The notes under the pieces: model-generated | Databases searched by the model: none | Told to the model about the DNA's origin: nothing | What the model saw: only the letters and a program-made list of their open reading frames with translations | IMG/VR virus record: IMGVR_UViG_2671181064_000003 | DNA: 24,754 nucleotides | From: a virus | Taxonomy: Duplodnaviria > Heunggongvirae > Uroviricota > Caudoviricetes | Strand: one strand, 5' to 3' | Shown here: piece after piece, positions 833 to 7,800 of the stretch | Position numbering within the stretch: the stretch's first letter is position 1 | How the letters are laid out: each line of letters begins with the position of its first letter | Position numbers and translations under genes: made by a program

Positions 833-1414
833 TTACCCTATAGGTGCTACTGGCCATTCAATATCCGGTGCAGTTGATGTATCAACACGGTTCAGCAACA
901 CCCGATACTTTTTCCAAGCTTCCAGCAACAAGGTTTCTTTCTCCGTTGCGATCTCCAGATCCACAGCATCCTGAAGCGGCGCTATATGCTCACTGGCTAC
1001 CTGCATCAGGCTGTTTTTTGTTTCTTCCGCCTCCCGGATCCGGAACAGTTTTTCTGCTTCCGTATCCTTCACCCAGGCTGTGCCGTTCCACTTCTGAAAC
1101 TCCCCTTCCGGGGATAACCAGGTGACATTTTCCGGTAATGAGCCGAGTTCAGAAATAAATAACGCGTCGCCGGAAGCCACGTCATAAACCGTTTTACCCC
1201 GATGATCTTCAACGAGATGCCACGATGACTCATCACTGTTGAAAACAGCCACGAAACCAGCCGGAATATCTGGCGGTGCAATATCGGTACTGTTTGCAGG
1301 CAGACCTGTATGAGGCGGAATATATGCGTCACCTTCACCAATAAATTCATTAGTTCCGGCCAGCAGGTTATAAATTTTTATGGTCCGTGCTTGTTCACTC
1401 ATTCTGAATGCCAT
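833..1414 (-). CDS. tfa: Tail fiber assembly protein Tfa
   Basis: 193-aa ORF ([24 protein letters not shown]...) near-identical to lambda Tfa as I recall it. Start overlaps the stf stop (TAATG). Confidence 0.93.
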
Positions 1415-4270
1415 TATGCGAGCCTCACAATATAGTTAAATGCGATGTTTTTGACGGTGTTTTCCGCGTTACCAGCAGCGTTAACGGTGATGGTGTGTCC
1501 ATGTGAACCAATCGCAACAGAGTGCGTATGAGCACCAATACCGACAGTATGCGCGTGTGCACCCGCAGATGCTGCTGTGCCGGACAGTGAGTGTGTATGG
1601 TTTCCTTCTGAAGATGATTTACCTACCCATTGGGAGGTGCCACTGGTTAATGAGCCACTGATACCAACCTGATTAGTCCCGCTAACTTGAGTACTCCCTG
1701 CCGGAAACATTCCAGTAGGTTGACTCCCGCTATTCGTTCTGGGCCCAGTCTGACTATGTTGGTGGGCCCCAGCTGAACTTGTAGAGCCGCTCAGACTGTG
1801 CGTATGCGCCCCGGTGTTATTCGTGGATTTAGTGCCGTAATCAAACGACGATGTGGTTTTCGTCCCCAAATCCGTACTGGATGCGCTGGCGCTGTGGGTG
1901 TGCGATTTAATGCCATCCTGTTCCTGAGACAATACGGCACGACCACTGGCGGGCTTGCCCTTAATCGTCCAGCCACGCATATCAGGGATCACGCCTGACG
2001 GATAAGCGGCTGCAAGTTTCGGGTAAGCAGATTTGTCAAAAGTCTGCCCCTGCATCAGGGCATAACCAGACGGAACGGTATCTGATGGCCACGGGATTGG
2101 TGCACCGACTGGATAAAACTCTGCAGGAGGATGAGCCGAGGTGTAAAGCTGCGCCCACGGCGACCAGTTTGCGTCGGTCGTATCCCGTCGTGAACGAATA
2201 AATGCCGGAGCATGAGCACCGCTTGTACCACTCCAGCCGATGAGTAACTCACCTTCGCCAACGGCTGTCATCCCTTTCAGGTGAATGATATTTCCATACG
2301 CTGTTGGATATCCGTTGTTATACACCTCGTATAACTCAAGACCTGCTGCCCCCTGCGTATTGTCTGTCAGCGCGGCTACCCGACCTTTTGAAGCCAGATT
2401 AACTGATGATACTGCTGTTCCACCTGACGGTAGCGCCCCGATCTCTGATGCCGTTGGCTTATTTCTGGAGTTATAGTCCCTTCGCCAGCCAGGTGAATAA
2501 TCTGTTCCGTGATTAATATAGGTAAACTGGGCGTTGGTTGTTCCGCCACCGCTGGATGTGGTCGGAGTGGTAATGCGGATCGTCATCGCTGACTTTATCC
2601 CCATTACTTCAATGACAGCTCCGGCGAGATGAATATTACCGCAGCCAGTATCAGTAATGATTTTATTATTGCCATAAGACCAGGAACCCTTGCACATCCA
2701 GTATGGATGGTTAAATGCTCCCTGAGAATCCAGCCACTCGATAAACTGTGCAGTCGTCCAGTTTCCTGTTGTTGTGCTTACTGACCCACCGAAGGCACGG
2801 CAGGCACCAATATTTTTCGTAAAGGTGTCTTTGCCAGGGATATCCGCACCGTTCTGATCTTTCTGCAGACGTTTCTCAGCATTGTCATTGGCTGCTTTTA
2901 CTGCCTTTGGCGTTGCCGCCAGCGTTTCAGACGTGCTGTTGGTCGCGCTGCTTAGCTGGATTATCCCTTTCTGTGCTGTCGTTGCATCCTGTGCGGTGTA
3001 TTTCCCGTTAGCCAGGTCATACGCGGCCTTAACGGCTTTTNNNNNNNNNNNCTGCTGACGCCTGTCTGGTCGCCTCATCTTTTGAAGCAGACGCCGATGA
3101 TGCCGATGACGCCGCCGAACTGGCGGACGATGCGGCAGCCGTTTTTGAGGATTCTGCACGGGTTTCCGACGCTTTCGCGTTCGTTTCGGATGTCTTCGCT
3201 GCGGAAGCTGACCTCGCTGCTGCCGTGGCCTGCTCAGTGGCTTCGCCAGCCTTCGTTGTGGCTGTTGAAGCGGATGATGCGGCGCTTTCTGCCGATTTTC
3301 CGGCGGCGGTGGCACTGGCTGAGGCCTGCCCGGCACTTGTTGACGCGGCGCTGGCAGACGACGCAGCCGCTGTTTTTGAGCCTGCCGCAGCTGAGGCACT
3401 CTGTCCCGCTGCCGTTTCAGAAGACCTGGCGTTCGTCTCGGACGTTTTGGCCGCCTTCGCAGAATTTGCAGCCGCCGTCGCCGAGGAAGCTGCGCTACTG
3501 GCGCTTGATGATGCGTTCGTTTCTGATGATTTTGCCGCCTCTTTTGAAGCCGACGCATCCCGGGCTGAGGTGGCAGCTTCTGACGCTTTCGTGGTCGCGG
3601 TGGATGCAGAAGTGGCTGCTGATTGTTGTGACGCTGCCGCATTCGTTTCTAACGTTTTCGCCGCACCGGCACTGGTAGCCGCCGCGCTTTTTGAGGACTC
3701 TGCAGCGGCAGCACTTTTTGAGGCTTCAGTGGCCTTTGTTGATGCCGTTCCTGCGCTGGAAGACGCTGACTGAGCCGACGAAGCGGCCTGTCCGGCTGAC
3801 GTGCTGGCTGCACGTGCTGAATCTGCAGCATCAGTCGCATGGGTTGCCGCCTCACGGGCTGATGTGCTGGCATCGCTGGCTGATTTCTTCGCGGCTGCCG
3901 TGTTCTGTGCCACCGCGGACGCGTTACGCGCCACCTCTTCCACCATCAGCTCAAAACGGCGCAGTGCCTCCGGACGGGCATCATCCTCCGTCATGGCACC
4001 GAGAAAATCATTCAGCGTACCGGGTCGGGAATCTTCATACACGGTGATGGTCCCGGCATGTGACGGCGGGAATCCTTCCACCAACAGAATAACGCTGTAC
4101 TGACCGTACTCAACGTCCATGCTGTAACGCCCGGCTTCATCCGGATTTTCTGAGGCCAGCGTGTTCACCACCACCGTGGTGCTGTTACGTTTTGCTTTCA
4201 GCTGGATTGTGCAGTTCTGTACCGGTTTTCCTGTGCCGTCTTTCAGTACACCTGAAATCTTTACTGCCAT
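1414..4270 (-). CDS. stf: Side tail fiber protein Stf, interrupted by an assembly gap at 3041-3051
   Basis: N-terminal part (ORF 3029..4276, [20 protein letters not shown]...) and C-terminal part (lower portion of ORF 1414..3642, ending ...[38 protein letters not shown]) both match lambda Stf. ATG at 4268-4270 preceded by GGGGTG. The apparent frame change across the N-run is attributed to the gap. Confidence 0.85.
3041..3051. other. Assembly gap (11 N) inside stf
   Basis: Run of N in the sequence. Confidence 1.
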
Positions 4271-4281
4271 ATTCACCCCAC

Positions 4282-4308
4282 AAAAAAGCCCGCCTGAACC
4301 GGCGGGCT
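4282..4308 (-). terminator. Rho-independent terminator downstream of lom
   Basis: On the minus strand: stem AGCCCGCC, loop GGTTCA, stem GGCGGGCT, then TTTTTT. Sits between the lom stop and the stf start. Confidence 0.65.
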
Positions 4309-4334: not shown

Positions 4335-4792
4335 TCAGAATTTATAACCGACACCCACGATGAAACCGTCAGTGCGCCAGAGACGTGTTGCTGTGGCGAC
4401 CGTCATCACTTCCGGTCAGCACATCGTGCGTTTTCCCCTTATTGTCAGTTACGCGGATATAATCCCCGGAAAAAGTCGACACACGGCTGTAAGCCACACC
4501 CGCCATCGCATACGCGCTGAACCATTCATTCACGCGCACAGACGGCCCCGCCATCACGCTGAACCAGCGGTTACGCACGGAATCTTCATGCCAGCGGGTA
4601 TCGCTGTAACGGGTCAGCTGGCGATTCTTGTCTCCTGCATAGCTGAATGACGTCACCAGCCCCAGCGTATCCGTAAACTCATAACGGTATTTCACGTTAA
4701 TCCCGTTCAGATCATCACTGCCGGGAACGTTGGTCCGGGCATGAAGATACCCCGCGCTCAGCGTGGACTGATGTTCAGACGCCCATGCAGGC
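4335..4792 (-). pseudogene. lom: Lom/Ail-family outer-membrane protein gene, 5' end lost in the gap and reading frame broken near the 3' end
   Basis: Frame of ORF 4369..4695 reads ...GINVKYRYEFTDTLG...SAYAMAGVAYSRV... (Lom-like) and stays open up to the N-run. The conserved C-terminus WRTDGFIVGVGYKF-stop (ending 4335) is in a different frame, and the gene is about 27 codons shorter than lambda lom between those two segments. Confidence 0.6.
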
Positions 4793-4838
4793 NNNNNNNN
4801 NNNNNNNNNNNNNNNNNNNNNNNNNNNNNNNNNNNNNN
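4793..4838. other. Assembly gap (46 N) spanning the J 3' end, the J-lom intergenic region and the lom 5' end
   Basis: Run of N. By collinearity with lambda roughly 400 bp are expected here. Confidence 1.
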
Positions 4839-7800
4839 AAAAATAATGGGCGGAATAATAATCTGGCGGTCAAAGTTATGATCATCGCTTATGGTGACTG
4901 TAACCGTCCCGTTTGGTGTTTCCGTGTTACCCCACGTACCAGCCTGTTTCGGAAATGATTTGGATACAGCTTTAACGAAGTCACCTCTGACCTGAGTCGC
5001 CTCCAGCATGCCCTTAATCGTACAGTTTTCATTTACCGTGACATTGTTGAGCGTCCCGGCGTTCGCATTCACACTGCCACTGATATCCGCATTTTTAGCG
5101 GTCAGCTTTCCGTCCGGAGTCAGGGAAAATGCCGATGGATTTCCACCGCTGGTAATGGTGGGGGCCGTCAGGCGTTTCAGGAACACGTCGTTCATGAATA
5201 TCTGATCGCCCTGACCAACAAACATCGGTTTTGTGTTGCCATTCGCAGGATTAACCATCGCAATCCTGTCCGCCGCCAGCAGCACCTGACTCTGCATGCC
5301 GTCAGGGGTGTTCTCAATACCGGCACCAATACCCGCGATATAAAGGCGTCCGTCCTGCATCTGCTGCAGCTTCACAGCCCACATGCTGTTCAGGTTATTA
5401 TTTGTATCAACCTGAACCTTCTGTATCTGCTGAATTGCCGCACTCTGGTCTTCCAGTTTCTTATTGACGGTCTGCGTGATTTCATTGCTGACATCCGTAA
5501 TGGACGTCCTGATTTCAGCCAGGTCAGGCGCAAGCTGACCGTTATCAATCTGCGTCCACAGCTCCTGAGCCAGATGGGTTTTCCCTATCTCGCCTTTGAA
5601 AAAATCCAGATAACCGGATGCATCATCACTCGGCTGACCAACAGCCTCCACGAATGCCGATTTGCCAACGGTGTTCACACTGCGGATATAAAAGTAATAA
5701 TCATGGCCCGGTTTGATATTGATACTGGCGGCTATCCAGTACAGCGCCGTGCCAAGATAGCGTGCTGTGGTTTCAACCTGCCTGATATCCGCAATCCGCT
5801 TTTCCGAGAACCAGAACTCAAACTGTACCGTCGGATCATAAACCGCAAGATGCGGCGTGGCGGTTATCTGAAAATAGCCCGGCGTCAGCTCAATCCGCGA
5901 CAGCGCTGCCGGTGCGGCAATCCGGAACGATACCGACGCCGGATCGCCCTGCTGCCCCCACGCATTTACTGCCCGGACTGTCAGCCTGTAGTTCCCCAGC
6001 GCCAGTTGTGTGAAGCGGTAAGTGGTTTCCGTCGTCCGGGCCGTGCTGACCAGCCGCTCACTGCCGTCATCCGCTGTTACGGTCAGACGGAGCAGGAAGC
6101 TCACGCCCTTCACCACCTTCGGCGTGTCCCAGCGCGCCAGCACCTGATATTCCCCGCTGTCTGCGGTGACTTCGGCAGTCAGGTGCTGCACCGCTGGCGG
6201 CGTGACACCATTCACCGTGCCGCTCTGGTCGCCGTCAAAGTGCGCCCCGTTATCCACGATGGCTTCTTTTTCCGGCACATGCTGCACGGCGGTGATGGCA
6301 TACGTGCCGTCGTCGTTCTCACGGATACTCACGCAGCGGAACAATCGCTGGTGCAGCGTCGGCAGCTTCAGCCCCCACACGCTGTATTCAGCAACACCGT
6401 CAGGAACACGGCTCACTTTTACCTTCACGCCGTCGGTGACGGACTGGACCTCCACGCTGACCGGATTCCCCTGCCCGTCAACCAGGCTTATCAGCGTGGT
6501 GCCGGAGGATGGCAGCGTGATTTCACGGTCGAGCGTCAGCGTCCGGGTCTGGCTGTTCACCGCCAGCACGCGCCCGCCGGTGCGGATACCGGCATAGTCA
6601 TCATCGCAGATTTCAATGACATCGCCCGGTACATGACGAAGCCCTTCAGCACCCACGCTGAAATCCACGGTCTGCGTCTCCAGCAGTTCCGTTTTAATCA
6701 GCCACAGCCCGGCGCGGTGTGCCTGCCCCCGGCTGGTACAGCCAAAGGCATCCATCTTCGTGACGTTACGACCGTAACGGGCAATGGCCTGCGTATCCTC
6801 CACAAGCTCTGTCGCCGTCTCCCAGCCGTTATCCGGGTCAATCCAGTTCACCTCAACGGCATTATGGCGGTCTTTCAGGGCGCTGAAACTGTAGCGGAAC
6901 GGCGCGCCATCATCCGGCATCACCACATTACTGCGGTTATAGGCCCACACCTTATCCGACTGTCGGTCCTGCACGAACGTCNNNNNNNNNNNNNNNNNNN
7001 NNNNNNNNNNNNNNNNNNNNNNNGCGTCTGCCCGTTCCATACCGGCATACAGCGCATCGCCGAGCAGAAATCACTGAGCACATCCCACGCCTTGCGCTGT
7101 GTGGTCAGCCAGGCATTACAGGTGATGCGCGGCTCCGTGCTGCCAAAGCCGTCCGGCACCGACTGGTCACAGTACTGGCCGATGACATACAGCGCCCATT
7201 TATCCACATCTGCCGCACCAAGACGTTTCCCCATGCCATAGCGCGGATGGGTCAGCATATCCCACAGACACCAGGCCATGTTGTTGCTGTATGCCGGTTT
7301 TAACGTTCCGTCCCAGATACCGCTGTATTGCCGCGTCTGCGGATTATAGTTCGACGGCACCTGCAGAATGCGCCCGCGAAGATGATAATTACGGCTCACC
7401 TGCTGGCTGCCGAACTGCTCCGAATCCACCTGTACGCCGACCAGTGCCGTGTTCGGGTAGCACTGTTTCACATCGATGATTTCGGTGTATGACGACCAGA
7501 GCGTTTTGTTCTGCAGCTGGTCTGTGGTGCTGTCCGGCGTCATTCTGCGCATCCGGATATTAAACGGGCGCGGCGGCAGGTTATCCACCACCACCGAGGC
7601 CAGATACTGCGAGGTGGTTTTGCCCTTAATGGTGATGTCTTTTTCCGTCACCCAGCCACCGTTACGCTGTATCTGAACCAGCAGGCGAACTTCAGACGGA
7701 TTCCTGTCTCCCTTTGAGGTGGTTTCCACCAGTGCCTGTACACCGAAGGTAAAACGCAGTCGGTCAATGTTTGCCGACGTGATGGTCCGGGTGATCGGCG

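Follow-up and report, generated by a model that had tools for sequence, protein, structure and literature searches.

The side tail fibre locus

The window analysed here, a stretch of 24,754 nucleotides of viral DNA (Caudoviricetes; IMG/VR record IMGVR_UViG_2671181064_000003), carries on its ORF map the gene order J–lom–stf–tfa. This order is the same in complete genomes and phages, and the locus is syntenic with that of the relatives L001, L002 and L005. According to the ORF calls, stf begins with an ATG at 4270 and ends with a stop codon at 1416–1414 on the minus strand. The stop codon of stf and the start codon of tfa share one base (TAATG, read from the sequence), making the two genes translationally coupled; the tfa product is 93% identical to lambda Tfa. 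Beside stf, lom bears a frameshifting deletion of about 78 bp, which may mean that the prophage is decaying. Neither a Gin/Cin/Pin-type serine invertase nor an inverted alternative fibre/chaperone segment was found, no such ORF being present in positions 1–832 downstream of tfa; the stretch beyond tfa is AT-rich and devoid of ORFs, whereas L001 and L002 carry a Pin-type recombinase at that place. D108 is equipped with gin plus S/U and S′/U′. We are highly confident that the gene encodes an ordinary side tail fibre (Stf) of a lambda-like E. coli or Shigella prophage, with the tfa chaperone gene next to it. All of its modules have been described before, in phages lambda, P2/Mu/P1, and T4. The features are as follows.

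4270..1414, minus strand: stf, side tail fibre gene (from ORFs and sequence), with an 11-N scaffold gap inside; reconstructed product of about 1027 aa
3968..4270, minus strand: N-terminal tail-attachment domain, aa 1–101, part of Pfam PF08400; 93% identical to lambda Stf
3052..3967, minus strand: visible Ala/Ser heptad coiled-coil rod, aa 102–406, running on into the gap to about aa 465
3041..3051, no strand: scaffold gap of 11 N, hiding at least 238 bp (rod end and first 44-aa Phage_fiber_2 unit)
2842..3040, minus strand: tail of the preceding 44-aa unit ([23 protein letters not shown]) and last complete Phage_fiber_2 repeat (PF03406)
2428..2841, minus strand: Cys-containing globular knob of P2 H / Mu S′ / P1 S′ type, reconstructed aa 553–690
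2119..2427, minus strand: second beta-rich shaft module, aa 691–793; 62% identical to Gifsy-2 Stf aa 527–625
1810..2118, minus strand: collar domain and needle start, aa 794–896, of T4 gp37 / lambda type; Pfam Collar PF07484, 2.8e-12
1573..1809, minus strand: distal tip region, aa 897–975, with HxH motifs 2–4 and variable loop
1417..1572, minus strand: C-terminal return strand of the needle, aa 976–1027, with HxH motifs 5–7
833..1414, minus strand: tfa, tail fibre assembly chaperone; Pfam Caudo_TAP PF02413, 4.6e-44

The scaffold gap and the length of the protein

The halves of stf flanking the gap encode an N-terminal part of 406 aa and a C-terminal part of 541 aa, both free of internal stops, so that the length of roughly 950 aa given in the first-pass annotation is right for the visible part (about 947 residues). 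The two halves, separated by the 11 Ns, are in different reading frames. The ORF of the window is not contiguous across 3041–3051, a point counted against reading the gene as an intact Stf. In the PhiR68_2 gene the sequences flanking the gap align at positions 1219 and 1457, i.e., 238 bp apart. Filling the gap with these 238 bp from PhiR68_2 restores the frame exactly and yields a protein of 1027 aa (lambda Stf: 774 aa), a figure that rests on the fill taken from relatives—near-identical phage and E. coli genes—and not on the window's own sequence across 3041–3051. The actual protein probably has 1027 aa or more. A segment-by-segment identity map bears out the description of the gene as a mosaic longer than lambda stf. 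Misassembly does not explain the extra length, as contiguous genes of 983–1029 aa with the same architecture are present in complete genomes and phages.

A reading of the N runs as length-preserving masking was rejected: a run of 46 N stands for about 414 bp, a run of 42 N for about 1 bp, and the 11-N run shifts the frame. The gap had been said to coincide with the repeat tract; it does matter, but it sits at the C-terminal end of the Ala/Ser tract and not inside it, where the tract meets a 44-aa fibre-repeat unit of variable copy number. Collapse of the Ala/Ser tract itself during assembly was likewise rejected, since Tandem Repeats Finder (TRF) detected no strong DNA tandem repeats in the tract and its direct DNA repeats are just 60–88% identical. 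More probably the gap arose where the tract adjoins the 132-bp fibre-repeat unit, the multi-copy nature of prophage stf genes contributing to it. As it stands, the draft assembly leaves stf at least 238 bp short and out of frame, so that an annotator would call a pseudogene or two genes.

Modules from the tail tip to the receptor-facing end

The match of the N-terminus to lambda Stf holds at 93% identity. Pfam PF08400 was scored at 1.4e-71 on the PhiR68_2 protein, whose residues 1–101 are 100% identical to those of the window; in Ur-lambda Stf, residues 1–94 form a collar round the gpV/gpM junction (PMC12617516). An NCBIfam scan assigned no family to any part of the protein.

The Ala/Ser tract that follows is real and longer than its lambda counterpart, as originally noted. 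It is, however, a strict, unbroken heptad coiled coil rather than the loose low-complexity sequence for which it had been taken. Ala, Ser, and Thr make up 75% of residues 114–406 (window positions about 3053–3931), and the composition follows the heptad register: Ala accounts for 98% of the residues at one position and for 69% at another, Ser for 79% at yet another. The power of the tract at period 3.5 is 8.1, compared with a maximum of 2.0 among 5000 shuffles, none of which reached the observed value, and the listed top lags of its autocorrelation are all multiples of 7. The short DNA repeats in the rod are spaced by multiples of 21 bp or 3 bp and are thus in frame, mostly in heptad register. 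The tract measures 352 aa versus 247 aa in lambda, an excess of 105 aa or exactly 15 heptads; these 105 residues (aa 304–408) have no counterpart in lambda. A matching proximal fibre rod spans residues 102–393 of Ur-lambda Stf (PMC12617516). Of 5426 complete E. coli genomes, 3554 cover at least 80% of the N-terminal half with the long rod, some of the genes being named stfR; among E. coli prophages the long rod predominates. Lambda and Gifsy-2 have the short form.

At 2842..3040 lies a recombination junction between the lambda-type and the P2-type part of the gene. The product of this segment is 88.5% identical to residues 262–348 of a P2-type H protein, and PF03406 matches residues 20–60 of the C-terminal part at 1e-22. 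The 132-bp unit occurs in one, two, or three copies in relatives, and adjacent copies in the array of S. flexneri match at 91%. A scan of genome contigs for exact copies of the gap flank hit an S. flexneri relative only. At the protein level, one 44-aa unit is present in Z1323HEC0016 and MLI023K1, two in PhiR68_2 and A20, and at least two in the window gene, part of the array being hidden by the gap. An engineered lambda-P2 STF chimera was joined at the same motif, lambda R393 being fused to P2 H 251 (PMC11338833); STF chimeras of lambda built for DNA delivery thus share their fusion site with the natural junction, which lies at the Phage_fiber_2 motif.

A distinct central Cys-containing domain had been described, and it is indeed present at about 2428–2841 and absent from lambda Stf. 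It is not new: it is the known P2 H / Mu S′ / P1 S′ module, for which the structure of a homologue has been solved (PDB 8JU3). A phmmer search of PDB sequences retrieved 8JU3, the Mu tail fibre S′, with an E-value of 5.9e-87. Aligned with other fibres by tblastn, as had been proposed, the knob is 72–74% identical to Mu, SfMu, and P1 and 80–87% identical to P2 and Yersinia P2-like phages. The structure prediction proposed at the same time agrees: the AF2 model of the knob—a monomer, reliable for the knob only—has a pLDDT of 80–91, and a Foldseek search against the PDB returned 8JU3 as the sole significant match (E 7e-20). Pfam reports no family at threshold for the central 250 aa, knob included. 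One candidate, Gp34_trimer (PF21446), was rejected, having reached just 18.4 bits (E 0.003) across 60 residues, against a gathering threshold of 27 bits. The second shaft module is also found by tblastn in Vibrio and other phage fibres, and AF2 models it with low confidence (pLDDT about 50–74).

The distal end is of the T4 gp37 type. PDB 2XGF (T4 gp37) matches residues 308–541 of the C-terminal part with an E-value of 1.2e-82, and the relative positions of its seven HxH motifs are those of T4 gp37. The His-rich tip had been said to match lambda Stf. This is true of the HxH scaffold (collar region 84% identical, C-terminal end 80%) but not of the loop between HxH 3 and 4, where the distal tip is only 44% identical to lambda. 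In this region identity is 49% to PhiR68_2 and MLI023K1 and 100% to E. coli Z1323HEC0016 and A20, while the return strand is 100% identical in all four of these relatives. At the DNA level the tip allele occurs in 25 of the 5426 complete E. coli genomes, and the best match within the phage collection searched, at 62%, is to the long tail fibres of T-even phages. In T4 gp37, specificity maps to the region between HxH 3 and 4 (PMC9659904). By analogy, the loop of about 50 aa between these motifs likely sets receptor specificity in the window protein. A receptor specificity different from that of lambda, which the first-pass annotation had raised as a possibility, is plausible on sequence grounds by way of this tip loop and not by way of the central domain. 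Host-range prediction should thus target the loop between HxH 3 and 4 rather than the conserved knob.

Alternative explanations

An origin of the two halves, the conserved N-terminal and the variable C-terminal one, from different prophages of one genome, joined across the N gap into a chimeric scaffold, is improbable. It would account for the arbitrary lengths of the N runs given above and for the frame shift at the 11-N run; stf-like sequence is moreover multi-copy, at a median of three and up to 17 places in genomes with any match, and the best-matching genomes differ for the N-terminal and C-terminal halves. Yet PhiR68_2 and E. coli A20 have contiguous genes with the same join, one and the same prophage of E. 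coli MLI023K1 is syntenic with the window to either side of the gap (AT-rich flank–tfa–stf–lom–J), and the right flank begins within the fibre-repeat unit that normally comes after this rod. The unlike frames on the two sides of the gap could also be taken as the mark of a genuine pseudogene in a decaying cryptic prophage, disrupted by deletion or frameshift where the rod meets the fibre repeats. The deletion in the adjoining lom is in keeping with such decay, as is the degraded stf of S. flexneri SFBU0723, in which the sole long ORF runs from the rod end onward. This reading has little likelihood, however, given that the N runs of the window do not mirror true lengths, that 406 and 541 codons are free of stops in the two halves, and that the 238-bp fill brings the frame back exactly.

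The remaining alternative holds, as the first-pass annotation had implied, that the knob itself is a receptor-binding, host-range domain, e.g., for LPS, which would make for a two-receptor fibre. In Mu/D108 S′ and P1 S′ the module does lie in the variable parts that switch host range, it is also present in P2 H, and a lambda-P2 chimera containing the knob targets K-12 LPS (PMC11338833). Against this, the homologous stretch of Mu S′ (8JU3 chain, 488 aa) spans residues 178–330 or so and is followed by about 150 residues, its equivalent in a P2-type H occupies residues 349–483 of 736, and the module is thus mid-shaft every time; in the window protein, 337 residues lie beyond the knob and end with a complete gp37-type tip. 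The knob is also 72–100% conserved across fibres with differing tips, the opposite of the pattern of a specificity determinant. We regard such a role as improbable; since it sits mid-fibre, the knob is probably not the principal part that binds the receptor. The reading preferred here is that of a mosaic Stf with a putative receptor-binding loop on the gp37-type tip.

Proposed architecture and function of the fibre

By homology, the fibre would be a homotrimer whose N-terminal domain (residues 1 to about 100) docks on the tail tip. An Ala/Ser-core coiled coil of about 50 heptads would form the proximal rod, its 15 heptads beyond those of lambda adding an estimated 15 nm or so. One or more 44-aa fibre-repeat units would make up the junction, and the hinge and distal coiled coil of lambda would be replaced by the P2 H / Mu S′-type knob and the Gifsy-2-type beta module. 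The fibre would end in a collar, needle, and head of T4 gp37 type, presumably held together by metal bound at the seven HxH sites, with the putative receptor-binding loop on this tip. Tfa may aid the folding of the gp37-type tip part. The assembled fibre is expected to bind an outer-membrane receptor in the initial, reversible step of adsorption, with specificity set mainly by the loop of about 50 aa between HxH motifs 3 and 4. The architecture of Ur-lambda Stf and its binding to OmpC have been described (PMC12617516), and modular STF chimeras are functional (PMC11338833).

A more tentative suggestion, which we consider possible though doubtful, is that the rare tip allele recognizes a receptor other than the OmpC of lambda Stf and that the variable 44-aa units and the 15-heptad extension tune the reach or the hinge behaviour of the fibre. 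If true, both readings would add new details within a well-known kind of protein. The case exemplifies the long-known modular exchange among lambdoid, P2/Mu/P1, and T-even tail fibre genes and offers little beyond annotation.

Comparison with known fibres

The closest relatives are alike in architecture from end to end: PhiR68_2 (PV340576), PhiR26_1, mEp460_ev081, and E. coli prophage genes named stfR or 'prophage tail fiber N-terminal domain-containing protein'. The whole gene is found at a coverage of at least 80% in 630 of the 5426 complete E. coli genomes and in seven sequenced phages. PhiR68_2, PhiR26_1, and mEp460_ev081 are 97–98% identical and annotated as side tail fiber; at the protein level, the genes of PhiR68_2, A20, and Z1323HEC0016 are 94–96% identical to the window protein. 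Over the whole gene, identity peaks at 95–98%; among the complete genomes and phages searched, none has precisely this combination at more than 99%. The literature searched yielded no useful paper on the ECOR-derived PhiR phages and no useful classification of Stf types. These phages and E. coli prophages share with the window the placement of lom upstream and tfa downstream of the gene. They differ from it in that several have a Pin-type recombinase beyond tfa in place of the ORF-less stretch, and the tip loop is unlike that of PhiR68_2 while being identical to those of Z1323HEC0016 and A20.

Ur-lambda Stf (774 aa, OmpC-binding) resembles the window protein in its N-terminal attachment domain (93%), heptad Ala/Ser rod (81–85%), collar and HxH needle scaffold (80–84%), Tfa (93%), and genome position. 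For comparison, Gifsy-1 Stf is about 51% identical to Ur-lambda Stf (Gifsy-1 paper). The window protein departs from Ur-lambda Stf in its 15 additional heptads, in its tip loop, and in having seven HxH motifs instead of eight; where Ur-lambda has a hinge and a distal coiled coil (aa ~394–525), the window has fibre-repeat units, the P2/Mu-type knob, and the Gifsy-2-type module. Mu/D108 S′ (gp52, PDB 8JU3), P1 S′, and P2 gpH share the fibre-repeat units and the Cys knob at 72–88% identity, and the predicted fold matches 8JU3. These are, however, myovirus fibres with other N-terminal baseplate-attachment parts and other distal tips, and in Mu and P1 the module resides within a Gin/Cin-invertible segment, whereas the window has neither invertase nor alternative segment. 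The tip of T4 gp37 (PDB 2XGF) shares with the window protein a collar domain and seven HxH motifs, which correspond in position, and its C-terminal strand is nearly identical. Differences lie in the head loop between HxH 3 and 4, which comprises 52 residues in the window gene and 34 of unrelated sequence in T4, and in the chaperone, which is Tfa in the window and gp38/gp57A in T4.

Organization of the stf locus

The window constitutes the late region of a lambda-like prophage (24.7 kb, terminase to tfa) and is about 97% identical to prophages of many complete E. coli genomes. The side tail fiber gene, stf, lies near one end of it.

Features of the tail fiber region
Upstream of stf, minus strand: J and lom
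4270..1414, minus strand: stf, with its ATG at 4270 and its stop codon at 1416-1414
3041-3051: run of 11 Ns, splitting the stf ORF
1414..833, minus strand: tfa, encoding the Stf chaperone (193 aa, Pfam Caudo_TAP, 93% identical to lambda Tfa)

As delineated from the ORF map and the sequence, stf encodes 406 aa before and 541 aa after the N run, both stop-free but in different frames relative to it; the tfa ATG shares one base with the stf stop codon. In the interval from lom to the stf start codon, an 8-pair GC-rich hairpin with a T run after it (4287-4308, minus strand) resembles an intrinsic terminator directly preceding stf. Downstream of tfa, positions 1-832 are AT-rich (33% GC vs 55% for the window) and contain no convincing ORF. 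E. coli MLI023K1 carries the same stretch after tfa, where it abuts IS1, whereas other relatives encode a Pin-type serine recombinase there. Some relatives (E. coli A20, locus L004 6087-6989; C8; MFDS1006657) carry an insertion between stf and tfa: a gene whose product contains a macro domain and which may be a moron involved in ADP-ribose metabolism or counter-defense.

The assembly gap

The flanks of the 11-N run match positions 1219 and 1457 of the PhiR68_2 stf gene; therefore, at least 238 bp are missing from the window. Filling in these 238 bp from PhiR68_2 yields a single frame of 1027 codons, which provides the residue numbering used here. Comparison with MLI023K1 revealed that N-run lengths in the window are not preserved: the 46-N run at 4793-4838, where J has its variable receptor-binding end and lom its start, corresponds to about 414 bp, and the 42-N run at 6982-7023 within J to about 1 bp, with the J frame differing on its two sides. 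The N runs are scaffold gaps, and the central fiber gene J is hence also incomplete in this assembly. Besides losing its 5′ end in the 46-N gap, lom (4338-4792, minus strand) lacks about 78 bp of the MLI023K1 gene, with residues 160-185 absent and the last 14 codons frame-shifted; it probably represents either a pseudogene or an error of assembly.

The stf gap falls exactly at a 132-bp (44-aa) fiber-repeat unit of variable copy number, present once in lambda, E. coli Z1323HEC0016, and MLI023K1, twice in PhiR68_2 and A20, and three times in tandem in S. flexneri SFBU0723, with 91% matches and an exact 53-bp stretch shared between neighboring copies. Since the right flank of the gap starts within such a unit, the real gene has at least two. 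[quoted passage not shown] The gap is also the meeting point of a conserved N-terminal half, found at ≥80% coverage in 3554 of 5426 complete genomes (median, two copies per genome), and a variable C-terminal half, found at this coverage in 810.

The Ala/Ser-rich tract

Ala, Ser, and Thr account for 75% of residues 114-406, the part of the tract visible in the window. The tract is strictly heptad-periodic, the strongest self-similarity lags listed all being multiples of 7. One position of the heptad holds Ala in 98% of cases, the position three residues on Ser in 79%, and the one after that Ala in 69%. At period 3.5, Ala has a spectral power of 8.1, whereas 5000 shuffles reached no more than 2.0. 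At the DNA level, only short repeats of 60-88% identity occur, spaced mostly by multiples of 21 bp and otherwise of 3 bp, and TRF detected no strong array. In Ur-lambda, the corresponding region (residues 102-393) forms a trimeric coiled coil, the proximal one of the side fiber (PMC12617516). The full tract comprises 352 aa in close relatives vs 247 aa in lambda; the surplus (aa 304-408, 105 aa) equals exactly 15 heptads, so that the heptad register is preserved. With a rise of about 0.15 nm per residue, the rod would be roughly 15 nm longer than that of lambda. Gifsy-2 Stf has the short form, like lambda, which suggests that the long form is derived in E. coli, where it is the majority form and some such genes are named stfR. 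The expansion noticed in the first-pass annotation is genuine, and the tract is a coiled-coil rod in its common long form.

Central domain, tip, and receptor specificity

Pfam returned no family above threshold for the 250 residues following the fiber repeats. The first ~140 of these, containing three cysteines (the knob, window 2428-2841), match the Mu S′ fiber structure 8JU3 (E 6e-87). By tblastn, the knob shows 72-74% identity with fibers of Mu, SfMu, and P1 and 80-87% with those of P2 and Yersinia P2-like phages; its AlphaFold2 model (pLDDT 80-91) has 8JU3 as sole significant Foldseek match in the PDB (E 7e-20). The Cys-containing domain described initially is present but not new, being a known P2 H/Mu S′/P1 S′ module with a solved homologue. 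Across homologues, its Cys56 and Cys73 change together (C/C to M/V) and the first cysteine is freely replaced; this pattern is compatible with Cys56 and Cys73 being contacting residues, which may form a disulfide or a packed pair. The ~100 residues after the knob match Gifsy-2 Stf at 62% and also resemble fibers of Vibrio and other phages.

The C-terminal residues 794-1027 include the Pfam Collar domain and have a match in 2XGF, the structure of the T4 gp37 tip (E 1e-82). They contain seven HxH motifs (putative metal sites) whose relative positions agree with those in gp37; lambda Stf has eight. Identity to lambda is 80-84% in the scaffold flanking the tip loop but falls to 44% in the stretch with the loop between HxH motifs 3 and 4, which shares just 49% with PhiR68_2 and MLI023K1. 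In gp37, receptor specificity has been mapped to the region matching this loop (PMC9659904). By analogy, the gp37-type tip loop is likely the specificity determinant. The alternative, that the knob chiefly determines specificity, is disfavored by comparison of homologues: it lies mid-fiber in every protein carrying it and is conserved across fibers with differing tips, which argues against such a role. The different receptor specificity proposed for this fiber is plausible on account of the diverged tip loop, not of the central domain. Of 5426 complete E. coli genomes, 25 carry the tip allele at ≥80% coverage (24 at ≥99% identity); no sequenced phage exceeds 62% to it, the best matches being T-even long tail fibers.

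Comparison with known fibers

Coverage of the whole gene reaches ≥80% in 630 of 5426 complete E. coli genomes as well as in seven sequenced phages, whose annotations read side tail fiber or tail fiber protein. Uninterrupted versions encoding 983-1029 aa are known, so that the length in excess of lambda is real and not a product of assembly. The initial observation of a mosaic, longer-than-lambda Stf with an Ala/Ser tract and a gap is borne out, and its interpretation in part.

Segment map of the reconstructed Stf
Residues 1-465: lambda/Rac type
Residues 466-690: P2 H/Mu S′ type
Residues 691-793: Gifsy-2 type
Residues 794-1027: gp37/lambda type, with its own tip loop

The first junction falls within the conserved Phage_fiber_2 motif, the same place at which a working lambda-P2 STF chimera has been engineered (PMC11338833). 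The stf gene of the window is a typical, previously sequenced mosaic allele and not novel in kind.
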